This document shows, in pieces, positions 5,424 through 34,083 of a DNA stretch of 34,083 bases. Source of the DNA: a virus (Duplodnaviria; Heunggongvirae; Uroviricota; Caudoviricetes). Position 1 is the first letter of the stretch. Each line of letters begins with the position of its first letter. The notes under the pieces are model-generated. The model did no database searches. It was not told the origin of the DNA and worked only from the letters and a program-made list of their open reading frames with translations. The stretch covers positions 1 to 34,083 of the IMG/VR virus record IMGVR_UViG_2698536651_000008; one strand, written 5' to 3'. The translations under genes were made by a program, and so were the position numbers.

Positions 5424-8018
5424 TTAGGCAGCAATACCAATGTTATTTTTACATGTTGAGAGGGTATTTTTTGGGACTGCTGGCCAAGCTAAGTATCTAT
5501 AATAGTTCATATAATCCTTCTCTATAAGTGTTTTTAGCTGTTTGATAGCCTTAAGTTCATCATCGAGTAAAAAGAATGCACACATGGCTGCATCTCCTTT
5601 TGAATTGTTGTGTGCTAAAATTGAATTTATTTCATTCTTTTTGATTTCTTGTTTGTCTTTTTTCTTTGCTACTTCTCTATTGATTATTAAAACATCTTTT
5701 TCCCTGTACTCTTTAATTTTGTCAAGGTTTTCGTTAACTATTTTAATTGTTTCTTTATAATTTCCTGCAAGAAGGTTGGTATAAGCTTTTCCTAAAATAT
5801 AATCACTAAAACCGTAACCTTTATCATAAGCTTCATCAAGAAGGTTTATTGCTTTGTGATAATCGCCACTTAAGGATGAAATATCAGATTTTAATTTTAG
5901 GATGGTTATTTCAGATGTATCTCTTGGCAGGCTCTCAATAAAATCCTCAGCTAGTTTAATGTTGTCTTTATCAATTAATAAGATTTCTACGATGTTCTCT
6001 ATATGATTATTTCTCCACGGACAGTTCATGGCTTCTTTAGCTAGTTCAATACCAGTTTTGATATCTTTATTGCAACCGATTTCATATCGAGCTTTGAATA
6101 TCATGAAAGGAGCAATTCTGGCGATATCACCCTCTTCTTCATATGTGTCAATAAAATCTTTCATTAAATCCGGAGTGTTTTCATCGAAATCATTATGAAA
6201 TAAAGATAAATGAAGTTTTGTTAAATATTTTAATATATTTCTTTTTTTGTTTTTTGATGATGTTTTATATACGTTGGATAATGTTTTTATGCATGATAAT
6301 GTTTCTTCTTTTTTTTGTAATGAGCAGGTGAAGTCAGTATATAAAGACAAGTATGTCTCGTGAGTGGGATTGATTTCCTTCAATTTATCAAGAAGTTCTT
6401 GTGTTTGTTTATTACAATCTTCCTTGTCATGATTTGATTGATGCTTAGTTTGTATTGCATCATATTTTATCCTCCAAGCAGTATTGTCAAGATCCCTGCT
6501 TTGAAGTAAGCTTTTATCAATTAAATCATTTATTTCATTAAAGCTTATCAATTCCTCGTCATTATTTTCTAGATGTAAGATAGCAATTCTGCTTAAATGA
6601 TTCTTAAGATTTATGCTATATGGAAATTTTTCCAGCAATCCTTTGAGATAATTTATTTTTTCTTTCAGATTTGTGAATATATTTGTTCTCAATAGTGCGT
6701 AACTTATATTGAACTCATCAAGAGCGATCAGCTTATCACTAATTTCTAATGCTGACTTTGTTTCTTTTTGTTCTTCTTTTATTTGAATTAACCTGCGCAG
6801 ATATTTGGATTTAATGTTGTCACTATCAGCGTTATGGATTAATTCATTTAGTTTTGACTCTGCGGTTGGATATTCTTTATTTTTAATGAGATTATCAATA
6901 TGTAATAAGTTTTTGAACTCCTCTTCGGGGATTTTTTGATCGTCTAAATCACTTTGGGATAACTCGTCTATTAATGATGATATATCATGTTTCAAAGTTT
7001 GTTTTTTTAATTTTGAGATATCAGATTTGATAATATTATTTTTAGATAGCTTATACTCATCAGCTATAAAATTTTGGATCATCATCTCTCTTTTTGTGGA
7101 TTTTTGATTTCCACCTAAGGAGAGTGTGCAGCCTAATTCTAGGGCTAGTTCTGCCATCAATTCATCAAAACCTTCTATTTCAACCCAATACACTTTTTCT
7201 TGGCCTAGAAGCCTAATCAGCTCTGGTGGGATGGGATCATCTTTTCTTACGCACCAGTATACTCCATTTCGCAGATAGTCATCCTGTTTTAATAAATGTT
7301 TTAGAACATCCATGATAGAGCTATCATTACCAGCATAACCAACGAAAATCATTCCATATTCTTTAGTAAATTCAGTTAGCTTTTCGCGTGTGTTTCCTTC
7401 TAATGACTCGGTTTCTTTTAAAGAACTTTTTATACTATCAAATAAATAATCACCATGTAATTTTATTATTTTGGGTCTAGATGAAGTGATTGAAACACCT
7501 TTGATTGATGAATCATGCGCACATAATAAAGGTCTATCGGAAGAAAATTGATAAAATGCTTCATTTATTAAATCGTCAAAATTTGTTGTAAAGACAGTAT
7601 CAAAAAACTTTGATTCAAATAAATCAACAAGATAAGCATATCCAATTGAAGGTAATTTTTTATCTACCTGACGCTCAACAAATCTCCTGCGTTGAGATGG
7701 GAGGTCAAATTTCTTTTCAAAAAGAGAAGAGTACTCATTGTTCTGATCGTACCAATCAGGGTGGTTTTTAGATAACCATTTTTTAGCTTCTTCGGCATCA
7801 GCGTATTCTTGATTGGATAATCTTGTGTATATTTCAGCTCTCCATTTTGTAACTAGTTCTTGACCAGTTTTTATTCCAGATGTAACGGATGCGCCAGCTC
7901 CAAGAAAAAATGAATAGTTAGGAGATGTGCCTGATTTTATTTTGATATAATCAGCCAAATCTTTAACAGTTCTTTTTTTTGAAACTAGTTTCTCCTTGGT
8001 TTCATCACGCTCTGACAT
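5424..8018 (-). CDS. SIR2-like (SIR2_2-type) domain protein with long C-terminal helical/TPR-like repeat region, 864 aa; candidate anti-phage NADase effector
   Basis: N-terminal motifs FFLGAGASVTSG, FTTNFDDLINEA and KIIKLHGDY fit the glycine-rich, TTNxD and catalytic-His signatures of defence-type SIR2 domains (recognised by eye). The C-terminal ~600 aa is K/E/N/L-rich helical repeat. The gene is strongly AT-rich compared with the flanking phage genes, and sits at the P2 tin/old position. Confidence 0.6.
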   Translation of the reverse strand: MSERDETKEKLVSKKRTVKDLADYIKIKSGTSPNYSFFLGAGASVTSGIKTGQELVTKWRAEIYTRLSNQEYADAEEAKKWLSKNHPDWYDQNNEYSSLFEKKFDLPSQRRRFVERQVDKKLPSIGYAYLVDLFESKFFDTVFTTNFDDLINEAFYQFSSDRPLLCAHDSSIKGVSITSSRPKIIKLHGDYLFDSIKSSLKETESLEGNTREKLTEFTKEYGMIFVGYAGNDSSIMDVLKHLLKQDDYLRNGVYWCVRKDDPIPPELIRLLGQEKVYWVEIEGFDELMAELALELGCTLSLGGNQKSTKREMMIQNFIADEYKLSKNNIIKSDISKLKKQTLKHDISSLIDELSQSDLDDQKIPEEEFKNLLHIDNLIKNKEYPTAESKLNELIHNADSDNIKSKYLRRLIQIKEEQKETKSALEISDKLIALDEFNISYALLRTNIFTNLKEKINYLKGLLEKFPYSINLKNHLSRIAILHLENNDEELISFNEINDLIDKSLLQSRDLDNTAWRIKYDAIQTKHQSNHDKEDCNKQTQELLDKLKEINPTHETYLSLYTDFTCSLQKKEETLSCIKTLSNVYKTSSKNKKRNILKYLTKLHLSLFHNDFDENTPDLMKDFIDTYEEEGDIARIAPFMIFKARYEIGCNKDIKTGIELAKEAMNCPWRNNHIENIVEILLIDKDNIKLAEDFIESLPRDTSEITILKLKSDISSLSGDYHKAINLLDEAYDKGYGFSDYILGKAYTNLLAGNYKETIKIVNENLDKIKEYREKDVLIINREVAKKKDKQEIKKNEINSILAHNNSKGDAAMCAFFLLDDELKAIKQLKTLIEKDYMNYYRYLAWPAVPKNTLSTCKNNIGIAA

Positions 8019-20194: not shown

Positions 20195-22813
20195 ATGAGC
20201 ACGAAATTTAAAACCGTTATCACTACTGCCGGAGCCGCAAAGCTGGCAGCCGCCACTGTCCCCGGCGGGAAAAAAGTAAACCTGTCTGCAATGGCCGTGG
20301 GTGACGGTAATGGCAAATTGCCGGTGCCGGATGCCGGTCAGACGAAACTGGTGCATGAGGTCTGGCGTCACGCTCTGAATAAAGTCAGCGTGGATAACAA
20401 GAATAAAAACTATATCGTGGCTGAACTGGTTGTACCGCCCGAAGTGGGCGGCTTCTGGATGCGTGAGCTTGGTCTGTATGACGATGCCGGAACACTGATT
20501 GCGGTATCCAACATGGCAGAAAGCTATAAGCCAGAACTGGCTGAAGGCTCCGGACGTGCGCAGACCTGCCGCATGGTTATTATTCTCAGCAACGTGGCGT
20601 CCGTTGAGCTGAGTATTGATGCCAGCACGGTGATGGCGACGCAGGATTACGTCGATGACAAAATCGCAGAGCATGAGCAGTCCCGCCGCCATCCTGACGC
20701 CACGCTGACAGAAAAAGGTTTTACTCAGTTAAGCAGTGCAACAAACAGCACCAGTGAAAAGCTGGCGGCAACGCCAAAGGCAGTAAAAGCAGCCTATGAC
20801 AATGCTGAGAAACGTCTGCAGAAAGACCAGAACGGTGGCGATATTCCAGATAAGGACGCTTTTCTGGACAATATTGGCGTTACCAGCCTGACGTTTATGA
20901 AAAACAACGGCGAAATGCCGGTTGATGCTGATCTGAATACATTTGGTCCTGTTAAGGCTTATTCAGGTATCTGGTCTAAAGCAACATCCACCAACGCAAC
21001 ACTGGAGAAAAATTTCCCTGAAGACGGTGCAGTCGGTGTGCTTGAGGTATTCAATGGCGGTAATTTTGCAGGAATGCAGCGTTATACCACCAGAACAGGC
21101 AATGTTTATATGCGCAACCTTTCTGGCACCTGGAATGGCTCAGACGGTCCGTGGAGCTACTGGCGTCAGATTCAGTCAGCAACACGCCCCCTTAGTACAA
21201 CCATTGACCTGAACACGCTCGGAGACGCAGAGCATCTTGGCTTATGGCGAAACAGTAGTGGCTCTATCGCTTCATTTGACCGCAACTATCCGGAAGAAGG
21301 AAGTTATGGTCAGGGACTCCTTGAAGTTCTTGAAGGTGGTGGGTACTCACGCATGCAACGCTACACGACCCGCCGTGGGAATGTATATGTTCGCTGCCTT
21401 TCTGCTACATGGAATGCAGAGAATCCACAGTGGGAACCGTGGTTAAGAGTCGGTCATCAGTCAGAGAGTCGTTATTACGACGGGGATTTGAATGATGTGA
21501 CTTCACCAGGTATTTACAGCGTTACAGGGAAGGCGACAAACGGTCCAATGCAGGATACCGCTGGAGCGACACTGCTTGGGATACTGGAAGTAATCAGACG
21601 TTTTGATGGTGTATCTGTCTGGCAGCGTTACACAACCACAGGGAAAGCAGAAACCACAAAGGGGCGCACTTTTGAGCGCGTCTATACCGGCAGCTCGTGG
21701 AGCGAATGGCGGGAAGTCTACACCTCGTATTCACTTCCCCTGAATCTGGGTATCGGCGGTGCAGTGGCAAAACTCACCAGCCTGGACTGGCAGACCCACG
21801 ACTTTGTGCCGGGCAGTCTGATAACCGTTCGGCTTGATAACATGACCAATATTCCCGACGGTATGGACTGGGGCGTCATTGATGGCAACCTGATAAACAT
21901 CGCAGTTGGTCCGAGTGATGATTCCGGTACTGGGCGCTCAATGCATGTATGGCGCAGCACTGTAAGTAAAGCGAACTACCGCTTTTTTATGGTGCGTATT
22001 TCAGGAAATCCGGGAAGCCGCACGATCACGACAAGACGTGTGCCAATTATCGACGAAGCTCAGACATGGGCGGCGAAACAAACCTTCAGCGCCGGTCTTT
22101 CAGGCGAACTGTCCGGCAATGCGGCTACAGCTACAAAGCTGAAAACGGCAAGGGCGATTAATGGCGTAACGTTTGACGGGACGAAAGATATTGAAGCGTT
22201 TCCGCCAGGTGTTCCGTTGCCGTGGCCATCAGATACACCACCTGCGGGCTATGCAATTATGCAGGGGCAGACGTTTGATAAGGCTGCATATCCGAAACTG
22301 GCTGTTGCCTATCCTTCAGGTGTTATTCCTGATATGCGCGGCTGGACAATCAAGGGCAAACCTGCCAGTGGGCGTGCCGTATTGTCACAGGAACAGGACG
22401 GGATTAAATCGCATACTCACAGCGCCAGTGCGTCAAATACGGATTTGGGAACGAAAACAACCAGTTCATTTGATTACGGGACAAAAACAGTCAGTACGTT
22501 TAACCACGGCACAAAATCAACCAATACTTCTGGCAATCATACACATACCGTCGGTTTTGCTGTGAGCGTGCAATCAGGCGGTGCAGATTATGGTGTTCCG
22601 CGAAGTGATAAAGGTGCTACGACTACAAGTTCATCAGGCAATCATGCACATACAGTCGACATTGGAGCACATAACCATACTGTTGGTATTGGTGCACATT
22701 CACACACGGTTGCTATTGGCTCACACGGGCACTCTATTACCGTTAATGCTACAGGTAATACAGAAAATACCGTAAAAAACATCGCATTTAACTATATTGT
22801 GAGGCTTGCATAA
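20195..22813 (+). CDS. H: Tail fibre protein H, enlarged mosaic variant (872 aa)
   Basis: The N-terminal ~200 aa ([25 protein letters not shown]...) look like the P2 H baseplate-proximal region, but the protein is longer than the P2 H I recall. It has three tandem ~80-90 aa repeats (...[22 protein letters not shown]... / ...[22 protein letters not shown]... / ...[22 protein letters not shown]...) and a C-terminal His-rich GxHxHTV repeat array. Confidence 0.85.
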
Positions 22814-23391
22814 TGGCTTTCAGAATGAGTGCAGAAGCACAAACTATCCGCGTATTTAATTTACTTGATGGAACCAATGAATTTATTGGGGAAAGTGACG
22901 CGTATATTCCACCGTATACAGGTCTGCCTGCAAACAGTACAGATATTGCGCCGCCTGATATACCGGCTGGTTATGCAGCCGTTTTCAATGCAGATGAAAT
23001 AAAATGGGAGTTGATGGAAGATCATCGCGGAAAGACTGTCTACGAAACGAAAACGGGAGCAGCCATTTATATTTCTGAACTTGGCGCATTACCTCCAGAC
23101 GTGACAGCCATTTCCCCGGATGGGGATTATCAGAAATGGAACGGAAATGCGTGGGTGAATGATGAGAATGCAGAGCGTGATGCGCTTGTCAGAGCGGCTG
23201 ACTCTCAGAAGAAAGAGCTGATTGCATATGCAGGTGAAATTATTGCCACGCTGCAGGATGCTGTCGATTTAGATATGGCTACCGAGGAAGAAAAGTTAAG
23301 CCTGACACACTGGAAAAAATACCGTGTGCTACTGAATCGCGTTCAGCCGGAAGATGCTCCGGATATAGAATGGCCTGAAATGCCACAATAA
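22813..23391 (+). CDS. G: Tail fibre assembly chaperone G (192 aa)
   Basis: ORF starting at the H stop (TAATG overlap), in the P2 G position. Confidence 0.8.
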
Positions 23392-24085
23392 ATCGTATTA
23401 GATCTGGTGTGAGATTACTCATCTATGGCACAGAGTAAAACCTAATCTGACAGTCCGCTCTGTGCCTGTAGCGGAAGTATTGTGCTTGCGACAGCTATGG
23501 AAAACGCACTGCGAACGGTGAATCCGGAGAGAAAAGATTATCTATTCTTAAGCTCGGATCACTACGGCGTCCGTCGTACGGTGTGGTCGGGGCATCTTAA
23601 TAGCATCGACGCAGAACGTTATTTGCGCAATGTACGGTCGGTAATCGCGATCATCCAATCATTTGCGTAAACCAACTCTTGCATTGGTGTACCATCCTGC
23701 ATGGGGAATAATCTCCGAGTCATGCATGCTGTCAATACGGCTCTCGCGGGACTCTTGCTGAGAAACTCAACCCATCTTCACTAAAAATGCAGTATCCTGC
23801 GAAGTTCTTATTTCTAATTCACTTGATAAAAATCTTTATAGTTCTCCTTTCCGTAAAACTTCCTGCGTTATTTCTTCTTTTCAGCCCCATCAATACATCG
23901 AGAAGGCATGCGAAGCATTAAAAAAACTCTCTAAATTTCCGAAAAATAGGAAATTTGCTTGGTATAATCGAGATTGAGATACACATGTTCTCATACCCCC
24001 TGCCGGGCAAGCACGGTAGGGATTATTTTCAATCAATATGGAGAGGAGCCTATGGCTTAATCTGTTTATAGAAGGAGTAGTAAAA

Positions 24086-24796
24086 ATGACCAAATGGACA
24101 TTTGAAAAAAATATTGTTGCACAAGGAATTGCTGCAAAAAATAAATCTGGACGTATTCCGGCGATTGACATTCAACCAGGCTCTGGTCTTTTGAAGCGTC
24201 ATCAAATGGCGTTGTATGAAAGCGCAATCAACTTCAGAGCGCCAATTGAGGAAAATGAATGTGGGCGATACAACCCCCCAGGGGGATGTGTGGCGGTATG
24301 GTATGCCTCTGACTCTGCGTTAACGGCGGCGGCAGAAGCTTATGGGCGTTTGCTCCATCTCGAAGGGACGATTTCTTATCCTGAATCGGTACTTTCACAA
24401 CACTATATGTGCTCTGTGGATGTCATGAGGCCAGTGAAAGTGATCGATGTTGTAGCGCTCTGTGAGTTGTTACATATTCCTTTGGATAGCTTAGAGAACG
24501 AGGATTACACTTTTACTCAATGGCTAATGGAACATCTTTATACACATTTCGGGCGTGACTATGACGGGATAGCCTATACCTCAAGGCATAAACGCTATAA
24601 ACGCTGTTATGCCTTTTGGGAACGACCGGATAGTACACCAGCCTTTACCGATACCCCTCAGGGGATGGTGCCTTATGCCAGTTACATCGAAAATGACGAA
24701 GGTATCTTCCCTAAAGGGTGGCACAAAGGAACGATGTCAGGTGAAGAGATGTTCGAAGAACTGCTTGGATTCGAAATTACGCCAGAACCAATGTAA
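24086..24796 (+). CDS. RES-domain protein (putative NAD+-targeting toxin/effector), about 236 aa
   Basis: Motifs GRYNPPGGCVAVWYASDSALTAAAEA and DGIAYTSRH...CYAFWE resemble the conserved Arg / Glu / Ser blocks of RES-domain toxins (recognised by eye). Start chosen at MTKWTF (ATG 24086) with SD GAAGGAG; AT-rich cargo at the P2 Z/fun position. Confidence 0.55.
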   Translation: MTKWTFEKNIVAQGIAAKNKSGRIPAIDIQPGSGLLKRHQMALYESAINFRAPIEENECGRYNPPGGCVAVWYASDSALTAAAEAYGRLLHLEGTISYPESVLSQHYMCSVDVMRPVKVIDVVALCELLHIPLDSLENEDYTFTQWLMEHLYTHFGRDYDGIAYTSRHKRYKRCYAFWERPDSTPAFTDTPQGMVPYASYIENDEGIFPKGWHKGTMSGEEMFEELLGFEITPEPM

Positions 24797-24798
24797 AC

Positions 24799-24828
24799 CA
24801 AAGAGGGGCTGGCTAGCCCCTCTTTTTA
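24799..24828. terminator. Bidirectional rho-independent terminator between the convergent cargo genes
   Basis: AAA-agaggggc-tggcta-gcccctct-TTTTT: 8-bp GC-rich stem flanked by an A-run and a T-run. Confidence 0.5.
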
Positions 24829-24834
24829 AAACAA

Positions 24835-25479
24835 TTAACTGGATACATGATTTCCGAACTGTTTAGCGGCACGGATAGCCAGACTAAGTTCACTATTTTT
24901 AGCGCCGTCCTGCATGATTTGAATCGGCGTCTTTTTCAGGCCTTCGCTATTAACCTCTATTGGTGATTTCAGCACACCCAACCTCAGCATTGGATGGGTA
25001 TTCTCGTCAAATGCCGCCATTACGTCTTCAAAGCCGGGAATCAGCCCGTTATCTGTGAACTGAAATTTCGGGAAAATAAAATCACCGTTCTGCTTGAATG
25101 CTAAAAGCTTGTTCTTCTTAACGCGAATGTTGATCGCCTGGCGGGTGATTCCAAGAATATCGACCACGTCATTTACCTTTAGCGTACCGCCTAACTCCTG
25201 AAGCCCACGATAAAATCGTTCCAGATTTTCGCGACGACGGCGCACTTTACGTAGTTCGTAGTCATTGACACGAGTCTTCTGTTCGAGTTGAACGGTGTAG
25301 AGCAATTGCATCAGTGAACTATCATCCAGCGTGATAGCATTAATTGCCTGGTTTTTGTCTTCAAATTCAGGCATCAGGGAAATAGCGAGGTTGTTAATTC
25401 TTTTCAGAAGGTTCAACTGGTATTCATTCAGCTTAGCTGAAGTGTTGGTTTCCCTTTCTGCTGCGGTGTGTTTGATCAT
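24835..25479 (-). CDS. HTH-containing hypothetical protein (about 214 aa), possible Xre-like partner of the RES protein
   Basis: Start at MIKHTAAER... with SD GGAGGTG. Central helix-turn-helix-like segment LKVNDVVDILGITRQAINIRVKKNKLLAFKQNG; C-terminal ~80 aa of unknown function. Convergent with the RES gene. Confidence 0.5.
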   Translation of the reverse strand: MIKHTAAERETNTSAKLNEYQLNLLKRINNLAISLMPEFEDKNQAINAITLDDSSLMQLLYTVQLEQKTRVNDYELRKVRRRRENLERFYRGLQELGGTLKVNDVVDILGITRQAINIRVKKNKLLAFKQNGDFIFPKFQFTDNGLIPGFEDVMAAFDENTHPMLRLGVLKSPIEVNSEGLKKTPIQIMQDGAKNSELSLAIRAAKQFGNHVSS

Positions 25480-25846
25480 TGTGCACCTCCATTTGACGAT
25501 TATCATAATTCATTTTATTGGAATGGTCAAATTCAAGGGCAAGCAATCTATGGTCAATCAAGGCGTAATTCTTTGGCATAGACCCGATTGACTCATGCAC
25601 CGTGATGTTAGCATGCACATAATTATGGTTATCCACACCTCGTACAAATCAGTCTGCCAGACTTGATAGCTTTTTGGCTATGTAAATTGTCAGTCGTAAA
25701 ATTAGTGAGTACAAATCAGGACAGGTGGGCGAATTGCCCGCCTTTTCTTTATCTGTTGTTTCATCCACTGACCAGCCAGGTCAAATAGCGTCTCATGTAC
25801 TACCCAACGGAAAATAGTTGCACCCATTAACCACGGAGTTAAACGG

Positions 25847-27037
25847 ATGAGTGACTATCATCACGGCGTGCAGGTGCTGGAGATTAACGACGGCACCCGC
25901 GTCATTTCCACCGTATCCACGGCCATTGTCGGCATGGTCTGCACGGCCAGCGATGCGGATGCGGAAACCTTCCCCCTCAATAAACCGGTGCTGATCACCA
26001 ATGTGCAGAGCGCAATTGCAAAGGCCGGTAAAAAAGGCACGCTGGCGGCATCGTTACAGGCCATCGCCGACCAGTCAAAACCGGTCACCGTTGTCGTGCG
26101 TGTGGAAGACGGCACCGGCGACGACGAGGAAACGAAACTCGCGCAGACCGTTTCCAATATCATTGGCACCACCGACGAAAACGGTCAGTACACCGGACTG
26201 AAAGCCCTGCTGGCGGCGGAGTCGGTAACCGGTGTTAAACCGCGTATTCTCGGTGTGCCGGGACTGGACACCAAAGAGGTGGCTGTTGCACTGGTATCCG
26301 TCTGTCAGAAGCTGCGCGCTTTCGGGTATATCAGCGCATGGGGCTGTAAAACCATTTCCGAGGTGAAAGCCTACCGCCAGAATTTCAGCCAGCGTGAGCT
26401 GATGGTCATCTGGCCGGATTTCCTCGCATGGGATACGGTCACCAGTACCACCGCCACCGCGTATGCCACCGCCCGTGCGCTGGGTCTGCGCGCTAAAATC
26501 GACCAGGAGCAGGGCTGGCATAAAACGCTGTCCAACGTCGGGGTAAACGGTGTTACCGGCATCAGCGCATCTGTATTCTGGGATTTGCAGGAGTCCGGCA
26601 CCGATGCTGACCTGCTTAACGAGTCAGGCGTCACTACGCTGATTCGCCGCGACGGTTTCCGATTCTGGGGTAACCGTACCTGCTCTGATGACCCGCTGTT
26701 CCTCTTTGAAAACTACACCCGCACCGCGCAGGTGCTGGCCGACACGATGGCTGAGGCGCACATGTGGGCGGTGGACAAGCCCATCACCGCAACGCTGATT
26801 CGCGACATCGTTGACGGCATCAATGCCAAATTCCGTGAGCTGAAAACAAACGGCTATATCGTGGATGCGACCTGCTGGTTCAGCGAAGAATCCAACGATG
26901 CGGAAACCCTCAAGGCCGGAAAACTGTATATCGACTACGACTATACACCGGTGCCTCCTCTTGAAAACCTGACCCTGCGCCAGCGTATTACCGATAAATA
27001 CCTGGCAAATCTGGTCACCTCGGTTAACAGCAATTAA
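25847..27037 (+). CDS. FI: Tail sheath protein FI (396 aa)
   Basis: 396-aa ORF MSDYHHGVQVLEINDGTRVI...; matches P2 FI. Confidence 0.9.
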   Translation: MSDYHHGVQVLEINDGTRVISTVSTAIVGMVCTASDADAETFPLNKPVLITNVQSAIAKAGKKGTLAASLQAIADQSKPVTVVVRVEDGTGDDEETKLAQTVSNIIGTTDENGQYTGLKALLAAESVTGVKPRILGVPGLDTKEVAVALVSVCQKLRAFGYISAWGCKTISEVKAYRQNFSQRELMVIWPDFLAWDTVTSTTATAYATARALGLRAKIDQEQGWHKTLSNVGVNGVTGISASVFWDLQESGTDADLLNESGVTTLIRRDGFRFWGNRTCSDDPLFLFENYTRTAQVLADTMAEAHMWAVDKPITATLIRDIVDGINAKFRELKTNGYIVDATCWFSEESNDAETLKAGKLYIDYDYTPVPPLENLTLRQRITDKYLANLVTSVNSN

Positions 27038-32230: not shown

Positions 32231-32449
32231 ATGTTTCATTGTCCTTTATGCCAGCATGCCGCACATGCGCGTACAAGTCGCTATATCACTGACACGACAA
32301 AAGAGCGTTATCATCAGTGCCAGAACGTGAATTGCAGCGCCACGTTCATCACTTATGAGTCGGTACAGCGATACATCGTGAAGCCGGGAGAAGTCCACGC
32401 CGTAAGGCCGCACCCGTTGCCATCAGGACAGCAAATTATGTGGATGTAA
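32231..32449 (+). CDS. ogr: Late-gene transcription activator Ogr (zinc finger, 72 aa)
   Basis: MFHCPLCQHAAHARTSRYITDTTKERYHQCQNVNCSATF... with a CxxC...CxxxxC zinc finger; the ORF-track start (32168) is longer than the 72-aa Ogr. Confidence 0.85.
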   Translation: MFHCPLCQHAAHARTSRYITDTTKERYHQCQNVNCSATFITYESVQRYIVKPGEVHAVRPHPLPSGQQIMWM

Positions 32450-32461
32450 TTACAAACAGAA

Positions 32462-32486
32462 AGCCCCTCAGTCGAGGGGCTTTTTT
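32462..32486 (+). terminator. Rho-independent terminator after ogr
   Basis: gcccctc-agtc-gaggggc hairpin followed by TTTTTT. Confidence 0.55.
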
Positions 32487-32550
32487 GTCGATGTGGTCAA
32501 TGTGTGGACGTGACCAGAAATAAATCCTTTTATTTCAATTTATTGTACGT

Positions 32551-32577
32551 AAAAAATAAGCCCGTGTAAGGGAGATT
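32551..32577. other. attR: Probable prophage attR core (P2-type att core overlapping the cyaR 3' end)
   Basis: The sequence aaaaaataagcccgtgtaagggagatt matches what I recall as the P2 att core, which coincides with the CyaR terminator. The exact extent is uncertain; attL lies outside the window. Confidence 0.45.
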
Positions 32578-32637
32578 ACACAGGCTAAGGAGGTGGTTCC
32601 TGGTACAGCTAGCATTTTATGGGTTATGTTTTTCAGC
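32551..32637 (-). ncRNA. cyaR: CyaR (RyeE) Hfq-dependent small RNA
   Basis: Minus-strand sequence GCTGAAAAACATAACCCATAAAATGCTAGCTGTACCAGGAACCACCTCCTTAGCCTGTGTAATCTCCCTTACACGGGCTTATTTTTT matches the E. coli CyaR sequence as I recall it, including the terminator hairpin and U-tail; it lies between yegQ and the phage ogr, as at the K-12 ogrK locus. Confidence 0.8.
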
Positions 32638-32672
32638 GAAACGGATGATAACCTTAATAAATGCAGCTGTAT

Positions 32673-32688
32673 GTGATCGGTTTCTAAG
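32673..32688. promoter_or_regulatory. Candidate CRP-binding site of the cyaR promoter
   Basis: TGTGA-N6-TCTAA on the plus strand (TTAGA-N6-TCACA on the minus strand), centred about 40 bp upstream of the inferred CyaR 5' end; CyaR is known to be CRP-activated. Confidence 0.4.
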
Positions 32689-32721
32689 AATTTTCCATCC
32701 GGGAAAAATAATCGAAATTAA

Positions 32722-34083
32722 TCACTTACCGTGGGGATTACGCGTGGTTTCCCCGGAGAAATTACGCATCAGCAGCGCGTAATTGAGCTCAAGATCCTGC
32801 GGGACCGGGAGCCACACAGTATAACCATCGCCTGGTGCTATCGGCATAGCTTCGCCTTTGGCGTTTTCCATGTGCTCAAGGGTAAAATTAATGTTGCCTT
32901 GCGGCGTCATCAGCTCAAGGCTGTCGCCAACGGAGAATTTATTTTTCACCGCTACCGCCGCGAGGTCCCCCTTGCGCTCACCGGTAAACTCACCAACAAA
33001 CTGCTGGCGGTCAGAAACTGAATAACCGTATTCGTAGTTCTGATAATCGTCGTGAGTATGACGACGCAGGAAACCTTCGGTATAGCCACGATGCGCCAGA
33101 CCTTCCAGAGTTTCCAGCAGGCTGGTATCGAACGGTTTTCCCGCAGCGGCGTCATCGATAGCTTTGCGGTAAACCTGTGCGGTGCGTGCACAATAGTAGA
33201 AAGATTTGGTACGACCTTCGATTTTCAGCGAATGCACGCCCATTTTGGTCAGGCGTTCTACATGGGCGATGGCGCGCAGATCTTTCGAGTTCATGATGTA
33301 AGTGCCGTGCTCATCTTCAAACGCGGTCATATACTCGCCCGGACGCTGGGCCTCTTCGATCATAAACACTTTGTCGGTTGGTGCGCCGATACCCAGCGTC
33401 GGCTCAACATTTTGCACCGGAATCGGCTCGTACTTGTGTACGATGTTGCCAACATCATCTTCTTTCCCTTCCTGGACGTTGTACTCCCAGCGGCAGGCGT
33501 TGGTGCAGGTGCCCTGGTTCGGGTCGCGCTTGTTGATATAGCCAGAGAGCAGGCAGCGACCGGAGTAGGCCATGCACAGCGCGCCGTGAACGAAGATCTC
33601 GATCTCCATATCCGGCACCTGATTGCGGATCTCTTCAATCTCTTCCAGCGACAGCTCGCGAGAGAGGATCACGCGGGTCAGGCCCATTTGCTGCCAGAAT
33701 TTCACCGTCGCCCAGTTCACGGCGTTAGCCTGCACCGAAAGGTGGATCGGCATTTCAGGGAAGTGCTCACGCACCAGCATAATCAGCCCTGGATCGGACA
33801 TAATCAGCGCATCCGGCCCCATTTCCACCACCGGTTTCAGGTCACGGATAAAGGTTTTCAGCTTGGCGTTGTGCGGTGCAATGTTGACCACGACATAAAA
33901 CTTTTTCCCCAGCGCGTGGGCTTCATTGATGCCGAGCTGAAGATTTTCGTGGTTGAATTCGTTGTTGCGCACACGCAGGGAATAACGCGGCTGGCCCGCA
34001 TAAACAGCATCTGCGCCATAAGCGAAAGCGTAACGCATATTTTTCAGCGTTCCCGCCGGGGAAAGGAGTTCCGGTTTAAACAT
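32722..34083 (-). CDS. yegQ: U32-family peptidase YegQ (TrhP-like), 453 aa, host gene
   Basis: Complete 453-aa ORF (MFKPELLSPAGTLKNMRYAFAYGADAVYAGQPRYSLRVRNNEF...) with the U32 signature region EIFVHGALCMAYSGRCLLSGY; its start codon is the last three bases of the window. Confidence 0.85.
   Translation of the reverse strand: MFKPELLSPAGTLKNMRYAFAYGADAVYAGQPRYSLRVRNNEFNHENLQLGINEAHALGKKFYVVVNIAPHNAKLKTFIRDLKPVVEMGPDALIMSDPGLIMLVREHFPEMPIHLSVQANAVNWATVKFWQQMGLTRVILSRELSLEEIEEIRNQVPDMEIEIFVHGALCMAYSGRCLLSGYINKRDPNQGTCTNACRWEYNVQEGKEDDVGNIVHKYEPIPVQNVEPTLGIGAPTDKVFMIEEAQRPGEYMTAFEDEHGTYIMNSKDLRAIAHVERLTKMGVHSLKIEGRTKSFYYCARTAQVYRKAIDDAAAGKPFDTSLLETLEGLAHRGYTEGFLRRHTHDDYQNYEYGYSVSDRQQFVGEFTGERKGDLAAVAVKNKFSVGDSLELMTPQGNINFTLEHMENAKGEAMPIAPGDGYTVWLPVPQDLELNYALLMRNFSGETTRNPHGK

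Follow-up and report, generated by a model that had tools for sequence, protein, structure and literature searches.

Mosaic tail fibre with tandem pyocin-type knobs and a gp37/Stf-type tip in a P2-like Escherichia coli prophage

The tail fibre gene H was analysed in a window of viral DNA of 34,083 nucleotides (nt) (Caudoviricetes; IMG/VR record IMGVR_UViG_2698536651_000008, positions 1 to 34,083). H is an open reading frame (ORF) at 20195..22813 on the plus strand that encodes 872 amino acids (aa) with no internal stops. The ORFs between 17769 and 23391 parallel the V-W-J-I-H-G late operon of P2, with homologues of V, W, J, and I (including a Tail_P2_I family match) upstream of H and a tail fibre assembly gene after it, and the order I-H-G-(moron)-FI around H is also that of P2. 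The rest of the prophage includes terminase, portal, a P2-family capsid, sheath, tape measure, hub D (GPD), and replication gene A (GPA); the carrier of H is a complete P2-like (Peduovirus) prophage of Escherichia coli. The right end of the window (32400-34083) matches E. coli yegQ (trhP) and ogrK with 100% identity, which places the prophage at the locus that holds a cryptic P2 remnant in K-12-like strains. Canonical P2 H (NC_001895; NP_046775) has 669 aa, and therefore the greater size of H noted in the first-pass annotation, which gave P2 H as about 670 aa, is real.

Homology to P2 is confined to the start of the protein. H shares 85% identity with canonical P2 H over aa 1-204 (BLASTP), a region that begins with the baseplate attachment domain (aa 1-151; Table 1). 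The rod repeat that follows also aligned with residues 110-176 of the Mu tail fibre S (5YVQ/8JU3; E values of 1e-18 to 3e-15). BLASTP homology to P2 H stops at aa ~204, and no significant alignment was found past that residue in the distal two thirds of H, including the C-terminal region that had been proposed for comparison. At the DNA level (blastn), homology to canonical P2 stops at nt ~20800, inside the rod repeat region, and returns at 23368. A different boundary was seen against a 919-aa Peduovirus H (L001 type) that is 90% identical over H aa 1-673: here homology stops at nt 22192 (aa 666) and is again regained at 23368. At nt 22192, homology to Peduovirus H gives way to homology to T4 gp37 and lambda Stf. 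The GC content of the cassette that starts at this point is 0.42-0.47 (~0.44), versus ~0.53 before it, and its DNA is 73% identical to lambda stf-tfa and 81% identical to Salmonella phage STYP1. The recombinant receptor-binding region suggested by the first-pass annotation is thus supported by two junctions, a lambda-type tfa gene, and a shift in GC content.

The stop codon of H (TAA) overlaps the start codon of tfa (ATG) in a TAATG sequence at 22811-22815, an arrangement in which the two genes are translationally coupled. Tfa was 65% identical to lambda Tfa (orf-194) over its full length, 98% identical to the Tfa of phage P24A7b, and 29% identical to T4 gp38. Similarity to P2 G was limited to the C-terminal 70 aa (46% identity). 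Tfa proteins have been described as modular, the N-terminal domain binding the fibre and varying and the C-terminal domain serving trimerisation and being conserved (PMC9608196), and the pattern of similarity in Tfa fits this model. As judged from their common loss and regain of homology, the tip and tfa were inherited together as one cassette. Invertible alternative fibre ends, in the style of Mu and P1, were also considered and were rejected because no inverted repeats were found in 20195-23400.

Self-BLAST of H returned the identity match alone, and windowed Smith-Waterman alignment with 500 shuffles was used instead. There was one strong off-diagonal match of aa ~231-330 to ~331-425, and a weaker one to ~426-525. 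The local alignment of U1 (231-330) with U2 (331-425) scored 205 (z = 31), and z was 6.2 for U1 versus U3 (426-525) and 3.5 for U2 versus U3. Internal repeats are therefore present on self-alignment, with z up to 31. A hidden Markov model (HMM) built from 220 units of this family matched H exactly three times across nt 20921-21730, close to the span of 20940-21750 for which repeats had been claimed, and the G-x-MQRYTTR-like core reported there agrees with the consensus of the unit family, QRYTT...G.VY.R...W..W. When 1.84 billion representative proteins were searched exhaustively with HMMER, 253 clusters proved to carry the unit; P2 H, T4 gp37, T4 gp34, and lambda Stf gave no match to the HMM.

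The triplication in H is real but old, and it is unexceptional for the family. Identity between the units is ~30-45%, with U1 and U2 close to each other and U3 an old divergent copy, the DNA-level cross-match among units (blastn) amounts to only 52 nt, and no long DNA direct repeats linking the units were found. Among 144 representatives, 78 proteins had one unit, 41 had two, 20 had three, 3 had four, and there was one protein each with five and six. Thus, the first-pass annotation was right that H contains three related units, as both the HMM and the shuffles indicate, but the triplication is neither peculiar to H nor a recent expansion.

Scans of the isolated units against Pfam and NCBIfam gave no match, as no HMM in these collections covers the knob domain. 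Many relatives are labelled "pyocin knob domain-containing protein" at NCBI, and fold and profile comparisons were therefore both used to test this label. The profile, built from 45 diverse units (A3), matched the R2/R1 pyocin fibre structures 6CL6 (E = 6.4e-16), 6CT8/6CU2 (1.9e-13), and 6CL5 (6.2e-13), with the main match to Knob2 and a weak second match to Knob1. The units were modelled with AlphaFold2 (AF2) as small antiparallel beta-sheet domains that match solved knob domains (pLDDT [predicted local distance difference test], 77-88 in the monomer model), and structural alignments to pyocin knobs had a sequence identity of ~16-21%. Because both the fold and the unit profile match the R2/R1 pyocin fibres, the H units are pyocin-type knob domains, three in tandem compared to two in the R1/R2 pyocins of Pseudomonas aeruginosa (6CL5, 6CL6, 6CU2). 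The distal ends also differ, with a lectin-like beta-sandwich in the R1/R2 pyocin fibres and a gp37-type needle in H (PMC6116203).

Domain 4, which follows the knobs, had no Pfam or NCBIfam match. Comparison of the middle region of H with T4 gp34/gp36 and lambda orf-401 revealed no similarity except for a 40-aa fibre repeat in orf-401. The linker's [23 protein letters not shown] motif recurs in gp37 of Salmonella phage Lv5cm, where it lies upstream of the knobs (54% identity over 39 aa).

The C-terminal part of H is a tip of the gp37/Stf type. The isolated C-terminus matched Pfam PF03335, and aa 664-872 aligned (E = 1.8e-77) with 2XGF, the crystallised tip of T4 gp37. Identity of the tip was 61% to gp37 807-1026 and 59% to lambda Stf (orf-314) (BLASTP), both comparisons that the first-pass annotation had proposed. 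The resemblance to the T4 gp37 tip that it described is not due to chance; it was understated for the scaffold and said nothing about specificity. The HxH repeats placed at ~22400-22760 correspond to six HxH motifs at nt 22412-22732 (Table 1); the T4 tip has seven such motifs and lambda has eight. Global alignment showed that H keeps 12 of T4's 14 metal-binding HxH histidines and that, outside the head, 139 of 192 residues (72%) are identical to T4 gp37. The gp37/Stf tip family is the receptor-binding protein (RBP) family of Magaziner and Salmond (2022). In this family, tip/chaperone pairs occur in >200 phages, homology lies in the last ~215 aa including the collar, and the main divergence is in the specificity region (PMC9659904). 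H has the traits of the family: C-terminal homology, an HxH array, divergence concentrated in the head, and a tfa-type gene downstream.

Table 1. Features of H and the adjoining chaperone gene, in window coordinates
Feature	H residues	Position	Strand	Evidence or remark
P2-type N-terminal tail-collar fibre domain	1-151	20195..20647	+	Pfam PF12571 Phage_tail_fib, E = 3.8e-57, full-length match
Phage_fiber_2 / Mu S-like rod repeat	167-230	20693..20884	+	Pfam PF03406, E = 2.5e-21
Knob domain 1 (pyocin-knob type)	243-330	20921..21184	+	Unit HMM E = 2e-35
Knob domain 2	334-424	21194..21466	+	Unit HMM E = 4.4e-32
Knob domain 3 (divergent copy)	429-512	21479..21730	+	Unit HMM E = 4.2e-17; U1/U3 z = 6.2
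Conserved beta-rich domain 4 (~110 aa)	516-625	21740..22069	+	Conservation; no Pfam or NCBIfam match
Linker with [23 protein letters not shown] motif	626-665	22070..22189	+	Second recombination junction at 3' end
Collar of gp37/Stf-type tip	666-735	22190..22399	+	Pfam PF07484 Collar, aa 672-719, E = 2.2e-10; aligns with 2XGF collar residues
Descending needle strand	736-784	22400..22546	+	HxH at aa 740, 782; FDYGTK-type Phage_fiber repeats
Distal tip (head) subdomain	785-816	22547..22642	+	Corresponds to T4 gp37 932-959
Ascending needle strand and stop	817-872	22643..22813	+	HxH at aa 817, 826, 835, 844; conserved C-terminal ...[15 protein letters not shown]
G/Tfa, tail fibre assembly chaperone of the lambda type (192 aa)		22813..23391	+	Pfam Caudo_TAP, E = 3.3e-40
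Exchangeable tip + tfa cassette		22193..23367	+	Marked off where homology to P2 and L001-type Peduovirus is lost and regained

The architecture of H was found at a coverage of at least 80% in 150 of 5,426 complete E. coli genomes (~3%), with a best nt identity of 94.7%, and also in Escherichia ruysiae. Full-length homologues of 872-874 aa are present in the isolated phage P24A7b and in many genomes, and many Peduovirus H proteins from E. coli and Yersinia hosts carry the block of knobs and domain 4 with other tips. Thus, both the architecture and this kind of object are already known from sequenced and isolated phages, and tail fibre mosaicism is already in the literature; no paper describing this exact Peduovirus H architecture was found in the literature. 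The closest homologue in a complete genome is that of E. coli 19KM1831 (NZ_CP151026.1, 4001-6619 of locus L003; 94.7% nt identity), which RefSeq lists as three partial pseudogene fragments. Translation of this locus gave 872 aa and no stops, and the pseudogene annotation is therefore an artefact, which looks as though it was caused by the mosaic architecture. A further set of identical matches (59% identity, query aa 167-872) came from low-coverage contigs of ~3-50 kb in assemblies of unrelated organisms, namely Pseudomonas, Shewanella, Leeuwenhoekiella, Neobacillus, Paenibacillus, Kitasatospora, and Bradyrhizobium (loci L019-L030, L075, and similar). These have the look of phage lambda stf brought in by contaminating or spiked-in lambda DNA, rather than of genuine prophages.

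Identity was compared domain by domain over six relatives (four from E. coli, P24A7b, and E. ruysiae). All six had an N-terminus that was 99-100% conserved. Domain 4, the collar, and the needle were 94-100% identical in the four from E. coli, with the needle strands at the low end of 94%; domain 4 was 98-100% identical in the close relatives and 69% identical in P24A7b and E. ruysiae. The knobs were 46-99% identical, and knob 3 was the most variable block (46-89%). The head (aa 786-812) was either 100% or 7% identical, i.e., it occurs as alternative alleles, which suggests diversifying specificity. The head subdomain (aa 785-816) is the predicted receptor-contact surface and a hypervariable allele.

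A close full-length counterpart is that of Peduovirus P24A7b (NC_049390, YP_009877362.1, 874 aa), which has the same domain order throughout and 77% aa identity. The two share the N-terminus, three knobs, domain 4, the linker, and a gp37-type tip with six HxH motifs, but differ in knob 1 (51% identical), knob 3 (46%), and the head, which is a different allele (7%). The E. coli prophage alleles of AF40 (WP_171884119.1, NZ_OZ547043), Br_54_kylling (WP_001531541.1), and S14 (WP_032221693.1) have the same 872-aa architecture and 91-95% nt identity. In AF40 the head (one allele with that of H), collar, needle, and domain 4 are 100% identical to those of H and the knobs 81-86%, and S14 has knobs 1-2 that are nearly identical to those of H and a different head allele. 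These E. coli genes represent allele shuffling within one architecture.

More distant systems share individual modules. Salmonella phage Lv5cm gp37 (QVW09057.1, 928 aa; Tequatrovirus) shares with H the block of three knobs and domain 4 (55% identical over 413 aa) and, at 74% identity, the tip with six HxH motifs, and Shigella phage JK23 gp37 has the same knobs, domain 4, and six-HxH tip. These proteins differ from H in their T-even N-terminus, ~200 extra residues between domain 4 and the tip, and a gp38-type chaperone. The T4 gp37 tip has the same collar-needle-head layout over ~210 aa, six of its seven HxH iron sites in common with H, and a chaperone gene directly 3' of it. It differs in its unrelated head, its additional HxH site, and its chaperone, which is of the gp38 rather than the lambda Tfa type; T4 gp37 has no sequence-detectable knob units, and H is borne on a P2 baseplate instead of on gp36. 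Stf of Ur-lambda (orf-401/orf-314) differs in its eight HxH motifs, a longer head insert, another proximal fibre without knobs, and the siphovirus tail that bears it. P2 gpH is like H in its N-terminus and gene position and is unrelated to it past aa 204, having no knob units, collar, or HxH tip.

We put the probability at roughly 0.85 that H forms the trimeric tail fibre of a P2-like prophage in E. coli and is built from four pre-existing modules, with a gp37/Stf-type tip and Tfa. The P2-type N-terminal domain would anchor the fibre to the baseplate and is followed by a short rod repeat of the Mu S/P2 type. Three tandem pyocin-type knobs and the conserved beta-rich domain make up the shaft, and the distal end is a collar-needle-head tip of the T4 gp37/lambda Stf type; the modules are joined by way of conserved linker motifs. 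Seven HxH motifs coordinate iron in T4 gp37. By analogy, the six HxH motifs of each chain of H would hold metal ions on the three-fold axis, with about six axial ions stapling a homotrimer, and the head, a small subdomain at the far end, would contact the receptor. Tfa would fold the tip from its distal end; its N-terminal part is specific for this type of tip, and its C-terminal part is a generic trimerising domain. Modular exchange of tail fibre segments is long established for P2, Mu, lambda, and the T-even phages, and H illustrates it.

Several results weigh against this interpretation. The AF2 model of H is of moderate quality overall (mean pLDDT of 65), and the model of domain 4 with the linker (aa 508-665) had a pLDDT of 43 and was discarded. 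The models are of monomers; the trimer, metal sites, and packing of the knobs lie outside them. One of the seven HxH sites of T4 is degenerate in H, in which a single histidine (aa 771) replaces H915/H917. The head of H is identical to T4 932-959 at only 4 of 28 positions and is unalignable with it, and binding of OmpC or lipopolysaccharide (LPS) by H is therefore an extrapolation from the scaffold alone.

Previous studies have indicated that gp37 binds OmpC/LPS via a tip subdomain in which 11 contact residues have been mapped (PMC6957217), that Ur-lambda Stf binds OmpC (PMC12617516), and that the receptor of P2 is the LPS core, a waaC mutant being resistant (PMC9594776). None of the 11 mapped contact residues is kept in H, and thus its receptor cannot be read from the sequence. 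By analogy with gp37 and Stf, the likeliest receptor would be an outer-membrane porin such as OmpC and/or the LPS core, unlike the LPS-core receptor of P2, and the exact specificity would be set by a head allele that is unrelated to that of T4. A host range different from that of P2, as proposed in the first-pass annotation, is plausible, and it may reasonably be inferred from these comparisons.

The main alternative is a fibre with two binding sites, in which the three knobs form a second, lateral receptor-binding surface (for example, for O-antigen/LPS glycans) and the fibre orients itself as has been proposed for those of R-type pyocins. We regard this as possible, with the odds against it. 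The variation among close relatives is compatible with it, although this is not proof: it is concentrated in the knobs and in the head, with the N-terminus, domain 4, and collar 97-100% identical in the E. coli relatives, and the column entropy over 120 cluster representatives was 0.46-0.62 bits in the knobs (0.62 in knob 3) versus 0.16 in domain 4. Buth et al. (2018) considered Knob2 a likely specificity determinant of R pyocins and noted binding of sialic acid by a knob-like domain in the K1F endosialidase (PMC6116203). However, the variability of the knobs could simply be due to looser constraint on surface loops or to alleles that often recombine, and no ligand site was identifiable in the knobs from the monomer model. 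The knob-like domains of T4 gp34 are not known to play a part in receptor binding. A stronger version, in which the three hypervariable knobs are an independent lateral glycan-reading site that acts together with the gp37-type tip, and in which knob and head alleles are shuffled independently, seems slightly more doubtful still.

It is improbable that the tip reads the same LPS-core receptor as P2, which would leave the host range unchanged and the mosaicism functionally neutral. On E. coli B, LPS alone can serve T4 gp37 as receptor (PMC6957217), and the head allele of H is unlike any characterised one, but the receptor-binding part of P2 H has no detectable similarity to H, divergence in the gp37/Stf tip family is mainly in the specificity region (PMC9659904), and the alternative head alleles of relatives point to diversifying specificity. 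It is very improbable that H belongs to a decaying or non-functional prophage remnant or to a tailocin, its length being the result of fusion or degradation. The pseudogene fragments annotated in 19KM1831 and the cryptic P2 remnant (ogrK) known at this chromosomal locus might be taken as signs of decay; yet H and its 19KM1831 homologue are uninterrupted, homologues of full length occur in P24A7b and many genomes, and H and tfa are translationally coupled. The presence of head, packaging, and replication genes (and of tail genes) and the intact ORFs led to the rejection of a tailocin or decayed prophage.

Accessory genes were found at two other places in the window. An insert of low GC content (0.38-0.46) at 23392-25850, between tfa and the tail sheath gene, occupies the slot of Z/fun in P2 and contains ORFs at 24038..24796 (+) and 24835..25506 (-). 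It carries a RES-domain protein (Pfam E = 2.4e-12; RefSeq name "RES family NAD+ phosphorylase") and, adjoining the RES gene, a convergent ORF of 223 aa that had no Pfam or PADLOC match; the usual RES-Xre layout (antitoxin upstream, same strand) was not seen at the insert. The whole insert was present at a coverage of at least 80% in 10 of the 5,426 complete E. coli genomes, and AF40 has the same RES moron downstream of its H gene (99.1% nt identity). The interval from replication gene A to portal gene Q, the old/tin accessory-gene hotspot of P2, holds a large SIR2_2-domain protein of 864 aa (5424..8018, -). Matches to PADLOC SIR2 models (Aga_SIR2-PNTD, E = 3e-61; pAgo-associated SIR2) were confined to the N-terminal ~300 aa of this protein, and its C-terminal ~550 aa extend beyond these matches. 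It is probably a prophage-borne defence gene of the NADase type.

Beyond correct annotation H matters little; in practice its value is as a template provided by nature. Its two junctions (aa ~204 and ~666) and the movement of tip and tfa as one cassette mark where P2-based particles or tailocins tolerate fibre swaps, and the pattern of knob and head alleles is a ready panel for host-range engineering. If the knobs do read glycans independently of the tip, the phage would need two surface signatures, such as an O-antigen/LPS feature and a porin, and E. coli prophages would diversify their host range by shuffling knob and head alleles independently.

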